The notes under the pieces were generated by a model that saw nothing but the letters and a program-made list of their open reading frames with translations, was not told where the DNA came from and made no database searches. Of a stretch of 64,000 nucleotides of DNA, positions 1,321-48,647 are shown one piece after another. Source of the stretch: Escherichia phage GADS24. Each line of letters begins with the position of its first letter. The stretch's first letter is position 1. The translations under genes were made by a program, and so were the position numbers. The DNA lies in sequence record OQ703618.1; one strand, written 5' to 3'.

Positions 1321-1650
1321 TTATACTCTAGGCTTTTGAGCTTGTTTGGTATTGGATTCCCATGCGGCTTTGGTAATTTTGTTAGCGGCATAACCAAAGG
1401 CATTAGATAGAACACCTTTAGAGTTGAATACATCCAATCCAATAAGTACACCGGCTGTGTTAAATTTAGGAGCAAAGTACGCATTAGTTTTAGAAAGAGC
1501 TTTTTTCAATTCAGGGTCTTGAACCAAGCCATCAAAAATGCCTTTACTATTTACTTTATATGTTACTTTGGGATTTTTACCTTCTTCGATAGCAGCTTTC
1601 TGTTCCGCAGATAATGTAACTTCAGTGATAAACTCTTGATATGTTTTCAT
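1321..1650 (-). CDS. internal protein (IP)-like, capsid-targeting N-terminus
   Basis: Begins MKTYQEFITE, as in T4 IPI/II/III; AGGAA SD; lies in the denV/e neighbourhood. Confidence 0.65.
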   Translation of the reverse strand: MKTYQEFITEVTLSAEQKAAIEEGKNPKVTYKVNSKGIFDGLVQDPELKKALSKTNAYFAPKFNTAGVLIGLDVFNSKGVLSNAFGYAANKITKAAWESNTKQAQKPRV

Positions 1651-1675
1651 TTTGTTCCTATTGTTTTAATTTATG

Positions 1676-1990
1676 TTATTCTTTAGGGAAGTTTTTAGAG
1701 TATGCATCGTAAAGTTTATTACCAATACGGCGGAAGACTTTAGCTGCAAAACGGTTTTCAGGGTTTTTAATCATGATTTGCATCATGTAAGTTCCTGCAT
1801 CCGAAAGAGCTTCTTCATAGTACCCATTAATTTCTTTAAGAGTCCTACGTTTACCACCAGGACCATCAACAGTAATTTTCCATTTACCTGTAGAAGTGCG
1901 GCTCGGTGGCTCAACTTGTTCAATCCAAATATAACCACCTTCAACGCGTTGGTTGGCGGATTCTGCAATAAATTCTTTATACGTTTTCAT
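1676..1990 (-). CDS. internal protein (IP)-like, capsid-targeting N-terminus
   Basis: Begins MKTYKEFIAE; AAGGAAA SD; GTTTAC-18-TATAAT promoter upstream. Confidence 0.65.
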   Translation of the reverse strand: MKTYKEFIAESANQRVEGGYIWIEQVEPPSRTSTGKWKITVDGPGGKRRTLKEINGYYEEALSDAGTYMMQIMIKNPENRFAAKVFRRIGNKLYDAYSKNFPKE

Positions 1991-2018
1991 TTTTGTTTCC
2001 TTGTTTGTTTTGATAAAG

Positions 2019-2051
2019 TAATTATACTATATTAATACTTAAGCGTAAACA
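2019..2051 (-). promoter_or_regulatory. sigma70/T4 early-type promoter (GTTTAC -35, 18 nt, TATAAT -10)
   Basis: Minus strand reads GTTTAC (rc of 2045-2050), 18-nt spacer, TATAAT (rc of 2021-2026); upstream of IP-like gene 1676..1990. Confidence 0.5.
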
Positions 2052-2053
2052 AT

Positions 2054-2314
2054 TTAAGCTTTACCGCCAGAAATAATTCCGAAGTTGTTAAAATCGTATC
2101 CAATATCGTCAACATCTACTTTAGGGCTTGCTACAACATAAGCAATTTCACTACGTTTTGCATAGGTGTTGATTTCTTTACCATCGCCACCTAAGAAAAA
2201 ATACCCATTACGTTTTAATGAGCCAAAGTCTTCCGCATCACCAATGAAAGCTTTAACTTTAAATTTAGGACCTTTGGCATCTGCTTCAGCGATAAATTCT
2301 TGATACATTTTCAT
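2054..2314 (-). CDS. internal protein (IP)-like, capsid-targeting N-terminus
   Basis: Begins MKMYQEFIAE; SD AAGGA overlaps the denV stop. Confidence 0.65.
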   Translation of the reverse strand: MKMYQEFIAEADAKGPKFKVKAFIGDAEDFGSLKRNGYFFLGGDGKEINTYAKRSEIAYVVASPKVDVDDIGYDFNNFGIISGGKA

Positions 2315-2320
2315 TTTTCC

Positions 2321-2734
2321 TTAGTAAATTGATTTACCATAGTATTTGTACCAAGTAGGACGTTGAGCAATTTTTTCATCTAAGCGTGCTTGACTTATCG
2401 CAATGGACGCTTCGGACGGGACATAATTATTACGAAATTCGGCAGGGATGTCGGAAATATCCTGGACAGTCGTGTCCTTGATTTTGAAACCACGTTTCAA
2501 GCATTCAGCGATTAGCTCGATTTGACGTAAACGTAAAAATTCGAGTTTGTCGTAAAAGAATGTTACGTGACCTGTGCCTAAGATAAATGTTGGAGAGATT
2601 TTAAAATCCTTTACACGTTTACCGTTTTGAACATGTTTACGGACTGCACCAAATACGCGTGGTAATTCACGATACTCAGCCATAAGATGTTGGTCGGTCA
2701 GTTCAGAAACAAGTGTTAAATTGATACGAGTCAT
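2321..2734 (-). CDS. denV: endonuclease V (pyrimidine-dimer DNA glycosylase)
   Basis: [12 protein letters not shown]...[19 protein letters not shown]...[10 protein letters not shown] matches T4 DenV; start placed at MTRINL ATG (2732-2734) with GGAGGA SD. Confidence 0.9.
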
Positions 2735-2792
2735 AATTTCCTCCAAGTAGTTGATGAATGTATAGTATCAAAGTCCTTGGAGGAAGTAAACA

Positions 2793-3074
2793 CTATTTTT
2801 CTGAAGCGCCTGAAATATATTTTTCAAGACGTTGTTTCATCAGCGAGCCGTTCTTAGCGATTTCTTCCGGTTTATCGCACATACGCAACAAGGCTTCAAG
2901 CTTAACGATATCGCTGGTACGTTCAAATTTGCGAGTATCTATCTTACTAGCAAGTTCAGAAATACGTGCTAATAGACTTTCGGCTTCAACCAAAGCTGCA
3001 CCTAGCTTAGTTGCAAATGTGTCAGTAGCTTCGTTAAGAATAGATTCTGATAAAAATTCACTATATGTTTTCAT
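2793..3074 (-). CDS. internal protein (IP)-like, capsid-targeting N-terminus
   Basis: Begins [10 protein letters not shown] at ATG 3072-3074, overlapping the e stop (ATGA); ORF track has a 5-codon upstream extension. Confidence 0.65.
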
Positions 3075-3559
3075 ATATACGCTTTCCAAGTTCCTGTTTT
3101 AAATGTTGAGATTACGCGTTTCGCGCGATTAGGTGTCTGACGATACCATTTAGATTGGGCTAGATTTACTGCCGCTTCATCCCAACGTTTCTGTTGAAGC
3201 ATACGAAGAGAATTAGTAAAACCAGCGACGCCTGCTACACCCATTTGGAAGACCATATTGACCAATGCACATCGACGAACCGCATCTAAAGAATCATATA
3301 CCGGTTTAAGTTTAGCATTACCCAAGATTCCGCGAACGGCTTTATCAACGTCTTCATTAAATAGCTTTTCAGCCTCATCAAGGGTAATTGTACCGTTGCA
3401 TTTACGTCCGATCATTCTGTCAAGTTCAGCTTTAGCTACGGCTAAAGACGGGTTCTTTGTTACTAAATGGCCTATGCCAATCGTCCAAAAGCCTTCAGTG
3501 TCTTTGTATAAAGACAGTCTAAGACCTTCGTCATTACGAAGCATTTCAAATATATTCAT
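3071..3559 (-). CDS. e: endolysin (T4 lysozyme, muramidase)
   Basis: [15 protein letters not shown]...TIGIGHL...TGTW near-identical to T4 lysozyme; start at MNIF ATG (3557-3559) with GGGAGG SD. Confidence 0.95.
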
Positions 3560-5453: not shown

Positions 5454-5759
5454 TTATTTTCCTCGACATTCTTTAATGAAATTTTCTAGATTGGTAGATT
5501 CAATAGCTTTTTTACGAGCTTCTGCGTGTTCTTCTTCGGACAATTTACGTTTATAATTGACCCAGACATTATGGTCGAAACCAGACGTGGCATATAATAA
5601 CAAAGCTCCGACGAATAATAAAAACGGTGATAAGAATACAAAACCAGGAACACCATCCATATCGTAAGCCTTTTGTAATACTGCAACAGAAAGAGATGCG
5701 TAAAAAGGTGATGCAAGTATTGTTAAAAGACCGATTCGATTGGTTTCTGTTAATTTCAT
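5454..5759 (-). CDS. hypothetical membrane protein with C-terminal ENFIKECR tail
   Basis: Two predicted TM segments; ends ...LENFIKECRGK; CATGAGGAGAATATT-ATG RBS; promoter/stem-loop cassette upstream. Confidence 0.5.
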   Translation of the reverse strand: MKLTETNRIGLLTILASPFYASLSVAVLQKAYDMDGVPGFVFLSPFLLFVGALLLYATSGFDHNVWVNYKRKLSEEEHAEARKKAIESTNLENFIKECRGK

Positions 5760-5826
5760 AATATTCTCCTCATGTTTTAATAGGACTACTATAACATAGT
5801 CCTATAATTGTGTAAACAGTTTTGTG
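5760..5826 (-). promoter_or_regulatory. PeSL-like early promoter/stem-loop cassette
   Basis: Minus strand: GTTTAC (rc 5812-5817), 18 nt, TATAGT; 8-bp perfect inverted repeat TAGGACTA (5781-5788)/TAGTCCTA (5798-5805); conserved RBS CATGAGGAGAATATTATG. Confidence 0.55.
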
Positions 5827-7066: not shown

Positions 7067-7116
7067 TTAATTTGATAGGACTACTATAACATAGCCCTAT
7101 CTTGTTGTAAACTGTT
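7067..7116 (-). promoter_or_regulatory. PeSL-like early promoter/stem-loop cassette
   Basis: TGATAGGACTACTATAACATAG core shared with cassette at 5781; GTTTAC (rc 7107-7112); imperfect stem TAGGACTA/TAGCCCTA. Confidence 0.5.
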
Positions 7117-7314
7117 TTAGCAAGAATAACTAGACGATACCCAGCCTTGAACAGTGATACTATTGTTGGATAATGAGATCGCGTTCTGGAGATTCAGACC
7201 TGCGTTATCTTCAATCCATAATGTAACTTCTTCGCGTTCTTCTGTTGCAATTTGGAACAGGTTTTCCAGAGCAGCTACTGCCGTACGTACAGCACAATCT
7301 AATTCACGAGACAT
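7117..7314 (-). CDS. small protein, GW[VI][SA]SS..C paralogue family member
   Basis: Ends ...QGWVSSSYSC; similar to the next two ORFs. Confidence 0.45.
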   Translation of the reverse strand: MSRELDCAVRTAVAALENLFQIATEEREEVTLWIEDNAGLNLQNAISLSNNSITVQGWVSSSYSC

Positions 7315-9919: not shown

Positions 9920-10147
9920 TTATTTTTTAATCAAATTGACATAAAATTCTGCATCTTCAGGGTGCATGCCTTCGCAGTATTCTTCAACCATGAACTTCTT
10001 AACAGCTTCATAAGGACCACTCAGATTAAGCTCAGTTGTCCAGAACTTGGAATCTTGGACTGAATCGATACGAACTTCAGGGTGACGGTTGCGAATAACT
10101 TCTTCTGTGTATTCATAATCAACGACATCAATACTAACTGTAGCCAT
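9920..10147 (-). CDS. hypothetical protein (75 aa)
   Basis: ORF track; GAGGAAAAC SD; promoter cassette upstream. Confidence 0.45.
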   Translation of the reverse strand: MATVSIDVVDYEYTEEVIRNRHPEVRIDSVQDSKFWTTELNLSGPYEAVKKFMVEEYCEGMHPEDAEFYVNLIKK

Positions 10148-10210
10148 TTTGTTTTCCTCTTGATTTGATAGGACTACTATAACATAAACTTACTTAGATG
10201 TAAATTATTT
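10148..10210 (-). promoter_or_regulatory. PeSL-like cassette (degenerate stem)
   Basis: TGATAGGACTACTATAACATA core (10167-10187); ATTTAC -35-like (rc 10199-10204). Confidence 0.4.
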
Positions 10211-10358
10211 CAACGTCACCTTTAGCTGCTTTATAACCTTCAGCCCAAGATACAACAGAGTTTTTATCTGAGGATTCAAATTCAGGCATTGGACTTTCAC
10301 CAATATTCACACAGTATGTTTCTTCATTTTCATCGAACCAAATAATTAAAGTAGTCAT
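10194..10358 (-). CDS. hypothetical small protein (54 aa, below ORF-track cutoff)
   Basis: ATG 10356-10358 preceded by GAGGAG SD inside the 43-nt cassette shared with 47260..47302; translation MTTLIIWFDENEETYCVN... Confidence 0.35.
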   Translation of the reverse strand: MTTLIIWFDENEETYCVNIGESPMPEFESSDKNSVVSWAEGYKAAKGDVEIIYI

Positions 10359-10398
10359 TTTGTTTACTCCTCTGTAGTTGATAAGTCTATAGTATCAC
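10356..10398 (-). repeat. 43-nt cassette identical to 47260..47302 (-10/RBS/start-codon module)
   Basis: CATTTTGTTTACTCCTCTGTAGTTGATAAGTCTATAGTATCAC is identical at both loci; minus strand reads ...TGATACTATAGACTTATCAACTACAGAGGAGTAAACAAAATG. Confidence 0.8.
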
Positions 10399-10425
10399 CA
10401 TCCTTGGTGCTTGTACATCATTATT

Positions 10426-10731
10426 TTAATTTTTCCAACTTAACAACTTGTAGTATCCTTCATTCATACGTGGTTTATCCCAAGAAATACTAATATATGA
10501 TTCACTGTCAATAGAAGTCGCCGGGTTTTTCTCTACCGTAAGACCTTCACTTTCCAGCCATTCAATAGTATTTGCGCATAAATCTGAAGAACACCTAATC
10601 GGAAACCGGCAAGATTTTTCACCTTTAGCTGCAGTGTTATACATCTTTTCTAAAATACGCTTTTGCACGTTTTTAAAAATAGTTTCGGCAGATTCTTCAG
10701 ATTTTTTATTCAGTTCAGTGTAAAGACTCAT
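10426..10731 (-). CDS. hypothetical protein (101 aa)
   Basis: ORF track 10426..10773; start moved to ATG 10729-10731 with CATGAGGAGAATATT RBS identical to that of gene 5454..5759. Confidence 0.5.
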   Translation of the reverse strand: MSLYTELNKKSEESAETIFKNVQKRILEKMYNTAAKGEKSCRFPIRCSSDLCANTIEWLESEGLTVEKNPATSIDSESYISISWDKPRMNEGYYKLLSWKN

Positions 10732-10795
10732 AATATTCTCCTCATGTTTTTTAATAGGACTATAGTAACACATCTAGGGAAGAAGTAAACAACTT
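10732..10795 (-). promoter_or_regulatory. PeSL-like early promoter cassette
   Basis: GTTTAC (rc 10785-10790), 17 nt, TACTAT; TAGGACTATAGTAACA core. Confidence 0.45.
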
Positions 10796-13822: not shown

Positions 13823-13871
13823 TTGTTTTGATAGGACTACTATAACATAATCCTATCAGCATGTAAACTAC
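13823..13871 (-). promoter_or_regulatory. PeSL-like early promoter/stem-loop cassette
   Basis: GTTTAC (rc 13863-13868), 17 nt, TTATAG; TGATAGGACTACTATAACATAATCCTATC inverted repeat. Confidence 0.5.
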
Positions 13872-14159
13872 TTACAGAAGAGTTTTTGCAATAATTTTAA
13901 GCTGAGCTACAGAAATATGCTTAGCTTTAAACAGTGCAGTCTCTTCAGCCGGAGAGATAACAATAGTAGCGCCATCTTTCTTAGCAGACCATCCATCCCC
14001 TAAGTAAACAGTACCTTTTACTTCTTCGCCGTCAACCAGACTAATCATTGGTTTACCCTCACGTCCTTTATTTGCTTTAATAACTTCGGAAGTAAGGGTT
14101 GCTTCGGTCAGAGTAGAAACGTTAGCATCAGGTGATATAAATTCTTTATAGGTTTTCAT
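13872..14159 (-). CDS. internal protein I-like (IP with capsid-targeting N-terminus)
   Basis: Begins MKTYKEFIS; 95 aa like T4 IPI precursor; adjacent to 57B as ipI is in T4. Confidence 0.6.
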   Translation of the reverse strand: MKTYKEFISPDANVSTLTEATLTSEVIKANKGREGKPMISLVDGEEVKGTVYLGDGWSAKKDGATIVISPAEETALFKAKHISVAQLKIIAKTLL

Positions 14160-14236
14160 TTTATTTCCTTGAGGTCGTTTATTTGATAGGATGATAGTAA
14201 CACGCCATCATCCTTATGTAAACTGTTTTTGTGAAA
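14160..14236 (-). promoter_or_regulatory. PeSL-like early promoter/stem-loop cassette
   Basis: GTTTAC (rc 14218-14223), 17 nt spacer; inverted repeat GGATGATAG (14189-14197)/CCATCATCC (14204-14212). Confidence 0.45.
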
Positions 14237-26575: not shown

Positions 26576-27572
26576 TTCAAGTGTTATCTATCGTGCAATA
26601 GTTACATCAAAATTTAGAACAGAGAAAATGCTGAATTTTTATAATTCAGTTGGGGATGGAGATGATAAAAACTCCATTTATATTACGTTTGGACGTTCAG
26701 AGCCTTGGGCGTCAAATGAAAATGAGGTGGGCTTCGCCCCACCTTATCCTACAGATTCTGTTCTTGGTGTTACTGATATGTGGACCCATATGATGGGTAC
26801 AGTTAAAGTTTTACCTTCAATGTTAGATTCTGTTATTCCTAGACGTGATTGGGGAGATGTGCGATATCCAGACCCTTACACGTTTAGAATTAACGATATA
26901 GTCGCATGTAATACTGCTCCTTACAACGCGACAGAAGTTGGAGCTGGTTGGTTAATTTACCGTTGTTTAGATGTCCCTGACGTAGGGCTCTGTTCAATAG
27001 AATCTTTAGATAATAAAGATGAATGTCTTAAATTAGGCGGTAAATGGACTCCGTCTGTTCGTTCTATGTCTCCTCCTGAAGGCAGAGGCGATGCTAATGG
27101 GGTTATCGAAACCGGTGATGGATATATTTGGGAATATCTTTATGAGATTCCTGCCGATGTGTCAATTAACCGTTGCACTAATGAATATCTTGTAGTTCCA
27201 TGGCCGGAAGAAATTAAAGAAGACCCCACCCGTTGGGGATATGAAAATAACTTAACTTGGCAACAAGACGACTACGGCTTGATTTACCGTGTTAAAGCCA
27301 ATACGATGCGGTTTAAAGCATATTTTGATTCTGTTTATTTCCCTGAGGCAGCTTTGCCTGGTAACAAGGGTTTTAGACAGATATCAATTATCGCAAACCC
27401 GCTAGAAGCTAAGAAAAATCCAAATGACCCTAATGTTAAAGCAGAAAAGGATTATTACGACCCTAGAGACCTGCAGCGTCATTCTGGTGAAATGATTTAT
27501 ATGGAAAACCGACCACCTGTTATTATGGCAATGGACCAAACAGAAGAAATTAACATTTTGTTTATGTTTTAA
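26568..27572 (+). CDS. 8: baseplate wedge protein gp8
   Basis: 334 aa as T4 gp8. Confidence 0.9.
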   Translation: MNDSSVIYRAIVTSKFRTEKMLNFYNSVGDGDDKNSIYITFGRSEPWASNENEVGFAPPYPTDSVLGVTDMWTHMMGTVKVLPSMLDSVIPRRDWGDVRYPDPYTFRINDIVACNTAPYNATEVGAGWLIYRCLDVPDVGLCSIESLDNKDECLKLGGKWTPSVRSMSPPEGRGDANGVIETGDGYIWEYLYEIPADVSINRCTNEYLVVPWPEEIKEDPTRWGYENNLTWQQDDYGLIYRVKANTMRFKAYFDSVYFPEAALPGNKGFRQISIIANPLEAKKNPNDPNVKAEKDYYDPRDLQRHSGEMIYMENRPPVIMAMDQTEEINILFMF

Positions 27573-27575
27573 TTA

Positions 27576-27600
27576 GGGAGCCTTCGGGCTCCCATTTTTG
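27576..27600 (+). terminator. rho-independent terminator (GGGAGCC-TTCG-GGCTCCC + ATTTTTG)
   Basis: 7-bp GC stem with UUCG tetraloop then T5, just after gene 8. Confidence 0.7.
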
Positions 27601-27604
27601 TATC

Positions 27605-27612
27605 TATAAATA
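27605..27612 (+). promoter_or_regulatory. T4 late promoter TATAAATA (gene 9)
   Basis: Exact TATAAATA about 34 nt upstream of gene 9 ATG. Confidence 0.6.
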
Positions 27613-45371: not shown

Positions 45372-46940
45372 ATGACTACTATCAAAACTAAAGCTCAGCT
45401 CGTAGACAAATGGAAAGAACTGCTGGAAGGTGAAGGCCTGCCGGAAATCGCTAATAGCAAGCAGGCTATTATCGCTAAAATCTTCGAAAACCAGGAAAAA
45501 GATTTCGAAGTATCCCCTGAATATAAAGACGAGAAAATCGCTCAGGCATTTGGTTCTTTCTTGACCGAAGCTGAAATTGGTGGTGACCACGGTTATAATG
45601 CTCAGAACATCGCAGCAGGTCAAACCTCTGGTGCGGTAACCCAGATTGGGCCAGCAGTTATGGGTATGGTTCGTCGTGCTATTCCTAATCTGATCGCTTT
45701 TGATATTTGTGGTGTTCAGCCTATGAACAGCCCTACCGGTCAGGTATTTGCTCTCCGTGCAGTATATGGTAAAGACCCTATCGCTGCTGGCGCTAAAGAA
45801 GCTTTCCATCCGATGTATGCCCCAGACGCGATGTTCTCTGGTCAGGGTGCTGCTAAGAAATTCCCAGCTCTGGCTGCTGACACTACTACTGTTGTAGGTG
45901 ATATCTATACTCACTTCTTCCAAGAAACTGGTACTGTATATCTGCAAGCTTCTGCTATCGTAACACTTGATTCTGGTGCAACTGATGCAGCTAAATTAGA
46001 TGCAGAAGTTAAGAAACAAATGGAAGCTGGTGCACTGGTAGAAATCGCTGAAGGTATGGCTACTTCTATCGCTGAACTCCAGGAAGGTTTCAACGGTTCT
46101 ACCGATAACCCATGGAACGAAATGGGCTTCCGTATCGATAAACAAGTTATCGAAGCTAAATCTCGCCAGCTGAAAGCTGCTTACTCTATCGAATTAGCAC
46201 AAGACCTCCGTGCAGTACACGGTATGGATGCTGATGCTGAACTGAGCGGTATTCTTGCTACTGAAATTATGCTAGAAATCAACCGTGAAGTTGTTGATTG
46301 GATTAACTACTCGGCACAGGTTGGTAAATCTGGTATGACCCTGACTCCGGGTTCTAAAGCTGGCGTATTTGACTTCCAGGACCCGATTGATATCCGTGGT
46401 GCTCGTTGGGCCGGTGAAAGCTTTAAATCTCTGTTGTTCCAGATTGATAAAGAAGCAGTTGAAATTGCTCGTCAAACCGGTCGTGGTGAAGGTAACTTCA
46501 TTATCGCTTCCCGTAACGTAGTTAACGTACTGGCTTCAGTTGACACTGGTATTTCTTACGCTGCACAGGGTCTGGCTTCTGGTTTTAATACCGACACTAC
46601 TAAGTCCGTATTTGCCGGTGTACTTGGTGGTAAATACCGCGTATACATCGACCAGTATGCTAAACAGGATTACTTCACCGTTGGTTACAAAGGCGCTAAC
46701 GAAATGGATGCAGGTATTTACTATGCTCCTTACGTTGCACTTACCCCACTGCGTGGTTCCGATCCTAAGAACTTCCAGCCGGTAATGGGCTTTAAAACTC
46801 GTTACGGTATCGGTGTTAACCCGTTTGCTGAAAGTTCCCTGCAGGCTCCAGGTGCTCGCATCCAGTCCGGTATGCCGTCTATCCTGAACAGCCTTGGTAA
46901 GAACGCTTACTTCCGCCGTGTATATGTAAAAGGCATCTAA
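45372..46940 (+). CDS. 23: major capsid protein gp23
   Basis: MTTIKTKAQLVDKWKELLEGEGLPEIANSKQAIIAKIFENQEKDF... near-identical to T4 gp23. Confidence 0.97.
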   Translation: MTTIKTKAQLVDKWKELLEGEGLPEIANSKQAIIAKIFENQEKDFEVSPEYKDEKIAQAFGSFLTEAEIGGDHGYNAQNIAAGQTSGAVTQIGPAVMGMVRRAIPNLIAFDICGVQPMNSPTGQVFALRAVYGKDPIAAGAKEAFHPMYAPDAMFSGQGAAKKFPALAADTTTVVGDIYTHFFQETGTVYLQASAIVTLDSGATDAAKLDAEVKKQMEAGALVEIAEGMATSIAELQEGFNGSTDNPWNEMGFRIDKQVIEAKSRQLKAAYSIELAQDLRAVHGMDADAELSGILATEIMLEINREVVDWINYSAQVGKSGMTLTPGSKAGVFDFQDPIDIRGARWAGESFKSLLFQIDKEAVEIARQTGRGEGNFIIASRNVVNVLASVDTGISYAAQGLASGFNTDTTKSVFAGVLGGKYRVYIDQYAKQDYFTVGYKGANEMDAGIYYAPYVALTPLRGSDPKNFQPVMGFKTRYGIGVNPFAESSLQAPGARIQSGMPSILNSLGKNAYFRRVYVKGI

Positions 46941-46964
46941 TCTTAATTGATTAAATCTTATTTT

Positions 46965-46990
46965 GGGAGACTTCGGTCTCCCATTTTTGG
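46965..46990 (+). terminator. rho-independent terminator (GGGAGAC-TTCG-GTCTCCC + ATTTTTGGTTTT)
   Basis: 7-bp stem with UUCG tetraloop and T-run after gene 23. Confidence 0.75.
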
Positions 46991-46992
46991 TT

Positions 46993-47262
46993 TTATTTCT
47001 GTGCAATTTCAATGTAAGTTTTCAAAATATTTTGCCAATTAGGCATACCTTCTTGGACATATGCCGGAGAACCATCTTTGTTTTTGAATGACGCAAGTTT
47101 ATCAGTGGCCCAATAACCTTTAGCTCGAGCTTCGGAATCAACTTTCATCCATACTTTGTTGAAGGCATTACCATTAACTTTTGCACCATATTTTTCTACT
47201 AACTTAACTGCTTCAGCTTCCAGAACTTTTAAAGTATCTCGTAAGAAACGTGCTTTAGTCAT
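46993..47262 (-). CDS. hypothetical protein (89 aa) at the position occupied by segD in T4
   Basis: Minus-strand ORF between 23 and 24; not GIY-YIG; preceded by the 43-nt cassette shared with 10356..10398. Confidence 0.5.
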   Translation of the reverse strand: MTKARFLRDTLKVLEAEAVKLVEKYGAKVNGNAFNKVWMKVDSEARAKGYWATDKLASFKNKDGSPAYVQEGMPNWQNILKTYIEIAQK

Positions 47263-47322
47263 TTTGTTTACTCCTCTGTAGTTGATAAGTCTATAGTATC
47301 ACATACCAAATACGTTGTAAAC
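47260..47322 (-). promoter_or_regulatory. PeSL-like promoter cassette; 47260..47302 identical to 10356..10398
   Basis: GTTTAC (rc 47317-47322), 18 nt, TACTAT, then the identical -10/RBS/ATG module. Confidence 0.55.
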
Positions 47323-47328
47323 AATCTT

Positions 47329-47336
47329 TATAAATA
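47329..47336 (+). promoter_or_regulatory. T4 late promoter TATAAATA (gene 24)
   Basis: Exact TATAAATA 28 nt upstream of gene 24 ATG. Confidence 0.6.
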
Positions 47337-47363
47337 ATCTATATCACATAAGGAAAAAATGCA

Positions 47364-48647
47364 ATGAGTAAAATCCAAAAATTATTGCGTGAATCTACAA
47401 CGTCTACTAGCAACTCAGTTGGTCGCCCAAATCTCGTTGCTTTGACTCGCGCTACGACTAAATTAATATATTCTGACATTGTAGCAACACAAAGAACTAA
47501 TCAACCTGTTGCTGCTTTTTATGGTATCAAATATCTTAACCCAGATAACGAATTCACATTTAAAACTGGTGCTACTTATGCAGGCGAAGTTGGATATGTG
47601 GACCGAGAAAAAATTACTGAGCTCACAGAAGAATCAAAAGTCACACTAAATAAAGGCGATTTTTTCAAATATAATAATATCGTCTATAAAGTGTTAGAAG
47701 ATACACCATTTGCAGATATTCAAGAAAGTGATCTAGAATTAGCTCTTCAGATTGCAGTCGTTCATTTAAAGGTACGGTTATTTTCAGATGCAGCGGTAAC
47801 AAGCAAATTTGAAAGCTCTGATAGCGAAATTTCTGATGCAAGATTCCAGATTAATAAATGGCAAACTTCAGTCAAATCTCGTAAACTTAAAACCGGCCTC
47901 ACGGTTGAATTAGCGCAAGATTTGGAAGCGAATGGATTTGATGCCCCTAACTTCTTAGAAGATTTGCTTGCTACTGAAATGGCTGATGAAATTAATAAAG
48001 ATATCCTTCAGTCTTTAATTACTGTATCGAAACGTTATAAAGTTACTGGAATTACTGACACCGGATTTATTGACTTGAGCTATGCATCCGCTCCAGAAGC
48101 AGGTCGTTCATTATATCGAATGGTGTGTGAAATGGTATCACACATTCAAAAAGAGACAACTTATACTGCAACGTTTTGTGTAGCCTCAGCTCGTGCAGCT
48201 GCTATTCTTGCTGCTTCTGGTTGGTTAAAACATAAGCCAGAAGATGACAAGTATCTTTCACAAAATGCTTATGGATTCTTGGCAAATGGATTACCTCTTT
48301 ACTGCGATACCAACAGTCCGTTAGATTATGTTATTGTGGGTGTTGTAGAAAATATCGGCGAAAAAGAAATTGTAGGGTCCATCTTTTATGCTCCATACAC
48401 TGAAGGAGTAGATTTAGATGACCCGGAACATGTTGGTGCATTTAAAGTTGTAGTTGATCCAGAAAGCTTGCAACCGTCTATCGGATTATTGGTTAGATAT
48501 GCTTTATCAGCAAATCCTTACACAGTAGCAAAAGACGAAAAAGAAGCGAGAATAATTGATGGTGGGGACATGGATAAAATGGCAGGACGTTCAGACTTGT
48601 CTGTTTTACTCGGTGTTAAATTGCCTAAAATTATTATAGATGAATAA
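47364..48647 (+). CDS. 24: capsid vertex protein gp24
   Basis: 427 aa, paralogue of gp23. Confidence 0.9.
   Translation: MSKIQKLLRESTTSTSNSVGRPNLVALTRATTKLIYSDIVATQRTNQPVAAFYGIKYLNPDNEFTFKTGATYAGEVGYVDREKITELTEESKVTLNKGDFFKYNNIVYKVLEDTPFADIQESDLELALQIAVVHLKVRLFSDAAVTSKFESSDSEISDARFQINKWQTSVKSRKLKTGLTVELAQDLEANGFDAPNFLEDLLATEMADEINKDILQSLITVSKRYKVTGITDTGFIDLSYASAPEAGRSLYRMVCEMVSHIQKETTYTATFCVASARAAAILAASGWLKHKPEDDKYLSQNAYGFLANGLPLYCDTNSPLDYVIVGVVENIGEKEIVGSIFYAPYTEGVDLDDPEHVGAFKVVVDPESLQPSIGLLVRYALSANPYTVAKDEKEARIIDGGDMDKMAGRSDLSVLLGVKLPKIIIDE

Follow-up and report, generated by a model that had tools for sequence, protein, structure and literature searches.

A predicted early promoter and translation-initiation cassette shared by two unrelated small genes of an RB69-like T-even phage

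Results

Two distant loci share an exact 47-nt sequence

We found that two loci of Escherichia phage GADS24, 37 kb apart, share an exact 47-nt sequence which, judged by its letters, is the downstream two-thirds of a T-even early promoter (of the host sigma-70 type) joined to a translation-initiation cassette, and which stands before two unrelated small genes. We consider it likely that the cassette came to be shared through one old recombination among dispersed members of a promoter-leader family, and that it acts as a homology joint. The window, by which we mean the whole stretch of 64,000 nucleotides analysed (sequence record OQ703618.1), belongs to a Mosigvirus, an RB69-like T-even phage, with best matches to vB_EcoM_TU01 and JS09-type genomes at 98-99.8% identity.

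The earlier note had reported a 43-nt identity at 10356-10398 and 47260-47302, and a recount returned 0 mismatches, with exactly these two occurrences in the window, no further copy there at up to 3 mismatches and a chance expectation of 0.00 for such a repeat (100 dinucleotide-preserving shuffles). The exact match in fact runs to 47 nt (10352-10398 and 47256-47302), reaching 4 nt deeper into both coding regions. Copy 1 (10352..10398, minus strand), which reads GTGATACTATAGACTTATCAACTACAGAGGAGTAAACAAAATGACTA on that strand, contains a TG-extended -10 TACTAT (10389-10394), a predicted +1 A (10382), the SD sequence GAGGAG (10367-10372) and an ATG (10356-10358) followed by 4 coding nt. Copy 2 (47256..47302, minus strand) is identical, with the -10 at 47293-47298, the predicted +1 at 47286, the SD at 47271-47276 and the ATG at 47260-47262. 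In both copies the predicted start is the A of ATCAA, after which come a 24-nt leader, the SD and, 8 nt past it, the ATG. Both start positions are predicted from spacing, and promoter use and timing for both copies from matches to consensus.

Both copies have a 17-nt spacer ahead of GTG-A-TACTAT, and, as had been noted, the -35 regions differ, reading TGTACA-N17 at locus 1 (-35 at 10412-10417, minus strand) and G-TTTACA-N17 at locus 2 (-35 at 47316-47321, minus strand). TGTACA departs from the (G)TTTAC(A/T) type by one mismatch and is kept unchanged in the T2 and SF2-1 orthologs. Upstream of the -35 lies an A/T-rich, UP-like zone, GGAAAAATTAAAATAATGA at locus 1, where it overlaps the ORF146c stop codon, and TAGATTATTTATAAAGATTG at locus 2. 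Each locus has its own upstream promoter half made of spacer, -35 and A/T-rich zone (10399..10440 and 47303..47340, both minus strand), the locus 1 spacer holding a weak CACCA/TGGTG hairpin. The locus 1 half has orthologs in T2 and SF2-1, where they belong to the promoter of the ORF145c homolog, and the locus 2 half recurs in ATK48 and LF82-16, which have a different cargo allele. A generic sigma-70 scan called locus 2 (9/12, TG present) and just missed locus 1 (8/12), and the locus 2 site is annotated as a T4-type early promoter in the GenBank record of a relative.

Structure in the 5' UTR and early codons was no better than in shuffles (z of +0.9 and +0.6), so these leaders would be open ribosome-loading sites, and the 47-mer modules had no Rfam match (best 17-23 bits, against gathering scores of 37-80). 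The repeat is bounded by GGATG and CTTTA at one locus and by GTAT and AAGCA at the other, and its ends fall inside the promoter spacer and inside codon 3. Neither a target-site duplication nor terminal inverted repeats were found at these edges, nor a recombinase gene near the copies.

The genes that the two copies precede, here called cargos, are a 54-aa ORF at locus 1 (10194..10358, minus strand; RB69ORF145c, phrog_5461) and an 89-aa ORF at locus 2 (46993..47262, minus strand; phrog_6003), both of unknown function. No similarity between the two proteins was detectable, in line with the description in the earlier note of a -10, ribosome site and ATG supplied to unrelated minus-strand ORFs; neither has an informative Pfam domain, and their PHROGs are unknown-function families only.

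The pair is an outlier in a family of modules

The window contains about ten minus-strand T4-type early promoter-leader modules, with the first -35 base at 2790, 5816, 7111, 10204, 10417, 10789, 13867, 14222, 47321 and 62656. Their family core is TG-(T/A)-TA-Y-W-AT-AG-(T/A)-C-(C/T)-TATCAA, which at each of the two loci is kept in both Mosigvirus and Tequatrovirus, which means that the first 21 nt of the repeat are for the most part family consensus. To that extent the caveat raised at the outset, that the motif could be a generic conserved leader of early genes, holds. It fails for the remaining 26 nt, since a search of the window for this leader half (CTACAGAGGAGTAAACAAAATGACTA) at up to 5 mismatches returned only the two known loci. 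When the segment from -13 to ATG+4 was compared among modules (45 pairwise identities), the median identity was 0.68 and the next-best 0.85, against 1.00 for the 47-mer pair, and the longest exact shared string was 47 nt for this pair versus at most 24 nt for any other. This outlier identity, together with a leader half unique to the two loci, calls for a transfer event beyond shared constraint.

The most similar third member (2725..2771, minus strand) is 62% identical to the 47-mer, with which it has TGATACTATA, ATCAACTAC and ATGACT in common. It forms the promoter and leader of a 137-aa ORF (start codon at 2734; region 2321-2790 of the window), which we take to be the homolog of T4 DenV (endonuclease V). 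Next to cargo 1, the frd.3 module (9920..10204, minus strand; gene at 9920-10147, -35 at 10199-10204) has its own early promoter and a leader that ends in AAACAAAATGGCTA.

We also observe a second leader pair, an exact 23-mer, AAAACATGAGGAGAATATTATGA (minus strand), at 5756-5778 and 10728-10750. The modules concerned, 5816 and 10789, are 85% identical over their whole length, and their cargos are two unrelated 101-aa ORFs; this is the same phenomenon as the 47-mer, to a lesser degree. The leader at locus 2 of ATK48 resembles the 5816/10789 type, and these comparisons show leader types to be common to non-homologous genes more generally. Separately, the repeat families D3 and D4 (1615-3076 and 14124-14161) are made up of several small minus-strand ORFs that follow one another in tandem at intervals of about 330 nt and have conserved start regions (AAATGAAAAC.TATAAAGAATTTAT...), pointing to tandemly arranged paralogs among the small early genes.

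Members of the family also differ in structure. The two 47-mer promoter regions have no stable stem-loop, their folding energies of -6.2 kcal/mol (z 0.0) and -6.7 kcal/mol (z -0.6) being like those of shuffles. Modules 5816, 7111, 13867 and 14222 (about 5772-5823, 7067-7118, 13823-13874 and 14178-14229, minus strand) carry a 10-12 bp inverted repeat around the -10, with folding energies between -12.7 and -16.0 kcal/mol and z between -3.0 and -4.8. The stem of module 14222 is GGATGAT/ATCATCC in place of GATAGGACTA/TAGTCCTATC, a compensatory change. PeSL (promoter-early stem-loop) cassettes (Arbiol et al. 2010, PMC2839356; Comeau et al. 2014, PMC4122927) combine a promoter with a stable stem-loop, within or beside it, of the terminator or attenuator kind. 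These four modules fit the PeSL subclass whose stem-loop covers the -10, where it might attenuate read-through or form a cruciform.

Gene gain, loss and replacement junctions fall inside the module or at its edge

Locus 1 is situated in the variable e.6 / frd.3 / RB69ORF145c / RB69ORF146c / e.8 region. ORF145c is present in the window, RB69 and mogra and absent from JQD51, PNJ-9 and ESh27, which are also without the frd.3 promoter; in these three genomes frd.3 is joined to the 47-mer-type promoter and leader (CTACAGAGGAG-AAACAAAATGG), placing the deletion junction in the SD-to-ATG part common to both neighbouring leaders. The fused arrangement is found in about one third of evenly sampled records. 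At the upstream side, mogra and PNJ-9 carry an unrelated 167-aa ORF in place of ORF146c, with the homology break about 25 nt upstream of the -35.

Locus 2 is a short antisense slot flanked by gene 23 (major capsid, 45372-46940) and gene 24 (vertex, 47364-48647). In the window it holds only the 89-aa ORF, with no segD and no adjacent endonuclease gene, whereas T4 carries segD there (PMC2988022). In ATK48, LF82 and F2 the slot is filled by segD together with an 88-aa allele that is 32% identical to the 89-aa protein; because the surroundings are otherwise 97-100% identical, the 89-aa allele is best seen as a horizontal replacement. The gene is dispensable, since a frameshift splits it into two small ORFs both in RB69 (ORF188c/189c; 2792-3032 of L014) and in mogra (mogra_94/95; 901-1169 of L016).

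The leader itself is exchanged at this locus. ATK48 retains the promoter through TATCAA and then has another leader (AACATGAGGAGATTAAAAATG), followed by the 88-aa allele and a seg-type (GIY-YIG) homing endonuclease, and LF82-16 is a mosaic, of the 47-mer type through GAGGAG and of the ATK48 type thereafter. About 111 records match this mosaic at 99% or more, the sampled rows covering the part from the SD upstream. Across the population, the 47-mer leader is thus placed to drive ORF145c, frd.3 and the 89-aa ORF in full or near-full form, and the 88-aa ORF in part. Recombination of a regulatory module, as put forward in the earlier note, is the best explanation of the shared sequence because the indel and replacement junctions of relatives fall inside the module, which would accordingly serve as a homology joint for the gain, loss and exchange of cassettes. 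Junctions may be over-represented in intergenic regulatory DNA, where only such recombinants keep genes intact.

In LF82-16, ATK48 and F2, segD lies directly downstream of the 88-aa ORF (564-1493 of L005, L006 and L007), and hence behind the locus 2 early promoter. According to a review, a promoter for segD could not be found in T4 (PMC2988022); for a seg gene to lie behind an early promoter would be out of the ordinary. On the opposite strand, the gene 24 late promoter TATAAATA (47329-47336, plus strand) sits within the locus 2 A/T-rich zone, 7 nt past the -35 of the divergent early promoter, so that early and late transcription of opposite strands have about 20 bp in common (47316-47336). 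Where gene 23 (plus strand) and the 89-aa ORF (minus strand) converge, a G+C-rich hairpin at 46964..46983 scores as a plus-strand terminator and lies at the end of the cargo 2 transcription unit. Hairpin terminators of the form GGGAG-N-CTTCGG-N-CTCCC occur at 27558-27607 and 46947-46996, 19 kb apart, with 78% identity over 50 nt, and may be another class of reused regulatory module.

The sharing is old and the copies change independently

The 47-mer was found in 141 GenBank phage records at 225 places by the database search that the earlier note had proposed, all in Mosigvirus-like phages of Escherichia or Shigella. Among the records listed there were at most two places per record, which implies about 84 records with two copies. 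The fetched copies, from phage records and from viral and metagenome contigs, always lay at the same two loci. The best 47-mer match was at least 99% identical in 128 of the 141 records, and the neighbouring DNA differs by 1-6%. In IMG/VR, related-locus searches with the two cargo proteins yielded 0 and 3 loci and an exact leader search 1 contig, a yield too small for population analysis, which is accordingly based on the GenBank phages. The leader-only pattern in metagenomes returned the same two cargos and two unrelated 21-mer matches, in which CTACAGAGGAGAAACAAAATG precedes unrelated ORFs of non-phage-like metagenome contigs (L024, 1044-1064; L025, 709-729); given the size of the collection, we judged these to be chance.

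RB69 has an intact copy at locus 1 and a 44/47 copy (3 substitutions) at locus 2, beside the frameshifted 89-aa gene. ESh27 has TATTAA at locus 2 and an intact core at locus 1, moskry has a different single change in each copy, and in metagenome contig OCHD01000040 locus 1 alone is changed. Concerted evolution of the two copies was considered and rejected, since the substitutions in these four are all private to one copy, which speaks against homogenisation by ongoing conversion. Taken together, the RB69 copy, the two-copy records and the private variants date the sharing to the common ancestor, as one old event that was conserved, and the preservation fits purifying selection on promoter and ribosome site. 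The word "recent" in the original description must therefore be given up. The suggestion of transposition fares no better: there is no target duplication, terminal repeat or recombinase, and GenBank phages and metagenomes show only the same two loci.

Discussion

The reading that we hold likely, one past recombination between dispersed promoter-leader members, would have put the same leader at a second locus by one of two routes. An ectopic homologous exchange may have started from the 21-nt promoter core that both loci already had, or the exchange may have accompanied the installation of the 89-aa allele. Purifying selection on promoter and ribosome site would have kept the sequence afterwards. 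Both copies would be transcribed by host RNA polymerase as soon as infection begins, and translation of the two unrelated small proteins would then depend on a common 5' UTR and ribosome site. Under the PeSL model of modular shuffling, such modules would be sites where this phage group gains, loses and swaps gene cassettes. The anatomy of the module, its family membership and outlier identity, the junction positions in relatives, and the age of the sharing and independence of the copies are seen directly in the sequences, and from them we infer the mechanism and direction of recombination as well as promoter activity and timing.

As to direction, locus 1 is slightly more likely to have been the source and locus 2 the recipient. 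The 88-aa allele occurs with another leader in three genera, and phages of the AV116 and PNJ-9 type, which have that allele with the other leader, keep the CTACAGAGGAG leader at locus 1. The locus 1 leader also sits on several diverged promoter haplotypes (PNJ-9, OCHD01000040, moskry), suggesting a longer leader history there. Against this direction, the 89-aa allele was never seen with any other leader, and the leader of the T2 locus 1 ortholog is closer to the 13867 module of the window (22 matches, versus 15 to the 47-mer leader). We had considered the T2 leader as an ortholog of the 47-mer leader and dropped it, the 13867 leader matching better. No donor of the 89-aa allele was found, there being no match between 38% and 80% identity.

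Several other explanations bear on the same observations. That a standard early promoter and leader arose at both loci by convergence or purifying selection, with no transfer, is very improbable: it accounts for the 21-nt core, which is family-wide in about ten modules and kept at each locus in both genera, but it is largely refuted by the 47/47 match of the pair (median 68%, next-best 85%) and by a leader half that recurs nowhere else in the window (search at up to 5 mismatches). Moreover, the same locus 2 promoter occurs with a different leader in ATK48, F2 and Dhakavirus-type phages, and selection on the SD would not fix 26 consecutive bases. It is possible, if doubtful, that the leader arrived with the 89-aa allele from some donor in the replacement at the 23-24 slot and was later copied to locus 1. 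The replacement itself is well marked (32% identity within 97-100% identical surroundings), the allele occurs with this leader only, and the T2 leader at locus 1 is not clearly orthologous to that of the 47-mer; yet AV116- and PNJ-9-type phages with the 88-aa allele still hold the CTACAGAGGAG leader at locus 1, that leader sits there on several diverged haplotypes, and no donor was found. Homing by SegD with co-conversion, in which break repair at the 23-24 slot copied flanks along a tract ending in the leader, is quite unlikely as a source of the pair. A GIY-YIG seg-type endonuclease does stand beside the 88-aa ORF in ATK48, LF82 and F2, the LF82-16 mosaic looks like the end of a conversion tract, and the seg genes of T-even phages are established agents of co-conversion and marker exclusion (PMC2988022), so that the process plausibly accounts for the allelic mosaics of locus 2, but not for identity with a locus 37 kb away, and segD is missing from the window.

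That the 47-mer is all or part of an element with active transposition or site-specific recombination is barely credible. An exact dispersed repeat with different flanks is what such an element would leave, and PeSL mini-circles have been detected in RB49 and phi1 (PMC2839356), but the 141 phage records and the metagenome contigs hold it at two loci only, its edges are without target-site duplications or terminal inverted repeats, no recombinase lies nearby, and the upstream promoter halves are orthologous to those of phages without the shared leader. Post-transcriptional control is a further candidate. T4 RegB, a GGAG-specific endoribonuclease, cleaves early SDs of the GGAG type, and a common site for RegB or another trans-acting factor could make the two genes a small regulon. 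The GGAG within the leader's SD and the near-invariance of the 47-mer amid more variable neighbouring DNA are consistent with this reading, whereas GGAG-type SDs occur in most early leaders here, which leaves the 26-nt identity unexplained, and we found no structure and no Rfam match; since it would explain maintenance and not origin, we think it improbable as an account of the pair. A bolder version of recombination, in which cargo ORFs are actively exchanged at the modules and so pass between the hyperplastic e-region and the conserved capsid cluster, by way of excised promoter-ORF mini-circles or short-homology recombination and intersecting with SegD homing at the 23-24 slot, strikes us as rather unlikely. 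If true, the 47-mer pair would be the footprint of a transfer into a core structural module, and promoter and leader would suffice for shuffling without a stem-loop.

The likely reading, a single old recombination within the promoter-leader family, places the pair among known systems as a clear but ordinary case of promoter-cassette gene shuffling already known in T4-type phages, and it reveals no new mechanism. It offers a clean natural example, over many genomes, of T4-type promoter and ribosome-site modules as joints for small accessory genes, and for phage engineering the module marks two positions that tolerate foreign ORFs, with predicted early expression.

Among T4-type early promoters, of which RB69 has 57 predicted, 13 of them upstream of novel ORFs (PMC1524935), the two copies conform to type in their GTTTAC-type -35, 17-nt spacer, TG-extended -10, A-rich UP zone and position directly 5' of early or novel ORFs (Miller et al. 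2003; Nolan et al. 2006, PMC1524935). The consensus does not, however, predict identity through the transcribed leader into coding sequence, which is specific to this pair. The likeness to seg homing co-conversion (Edgell et al. 2010, PMC2988022) lies in the 23-24 interval being the segD slot, in relatives that have segD with an alternative cargo allele, and in the LF82-16 mosaic junction, which resembles the end of a conversion tract; in contrast, the slot in the window is without segD, and homing acts between alleles of one locus. As in lambdoid morons, which are promoter-ORF-terminator insertions (PMC1524935), ORF145c and the 89-aa ORF are small accessory genes with promoters of their own, inserted between conserved genes, the 89-aa ORF even having a hairpin at its end, but the composition here is phage-like and not host-like, and the modules are mutually homologous and were apparently exchanged by homologous recombination and not by random insertion.

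The closest counterparts are the PeSLs, whose shuffling behaviour is known from RB49/phi1 (PMC2839356) and from T4/PST and KVP40/nt-1 (PMC4122927). The T4/PST PeSL promoter consensus is TTTACW-N17-TAYWAT, with SD and ATG at the 3' end (PMC4122927), and the 47-mer promoter matches it. Like PeSLs, the modules described here are conserved early promoters, scattered rather than clustered, that follow an A/T-rich zone and run at the 3' end into the SD and ATG of small ORFs without known function, and they lie at insertion, deletion and replacement junctions between close relatives (here JQD51, PNJ-9, ESh27, mogra, ATK48 and LF82-16), with one copy in a hyperplastic region and the other by a non-essential gene in the capsid cluster. 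They differ in that neither 47-mer copy has a significant stem-loop, unlike four other promoters of the window, and the two copies are best called PeSL-family promoter-leader modules without a stem-loop, for which the authors of the PeSL work use the term "degraded" or half PeSLs. In the literature searched, neither this pair nor PeSLs in the RB69/Mosigvirus group were described, and our findings extend the PeSL picture to this group and to a slot within the capsid gene cluster.
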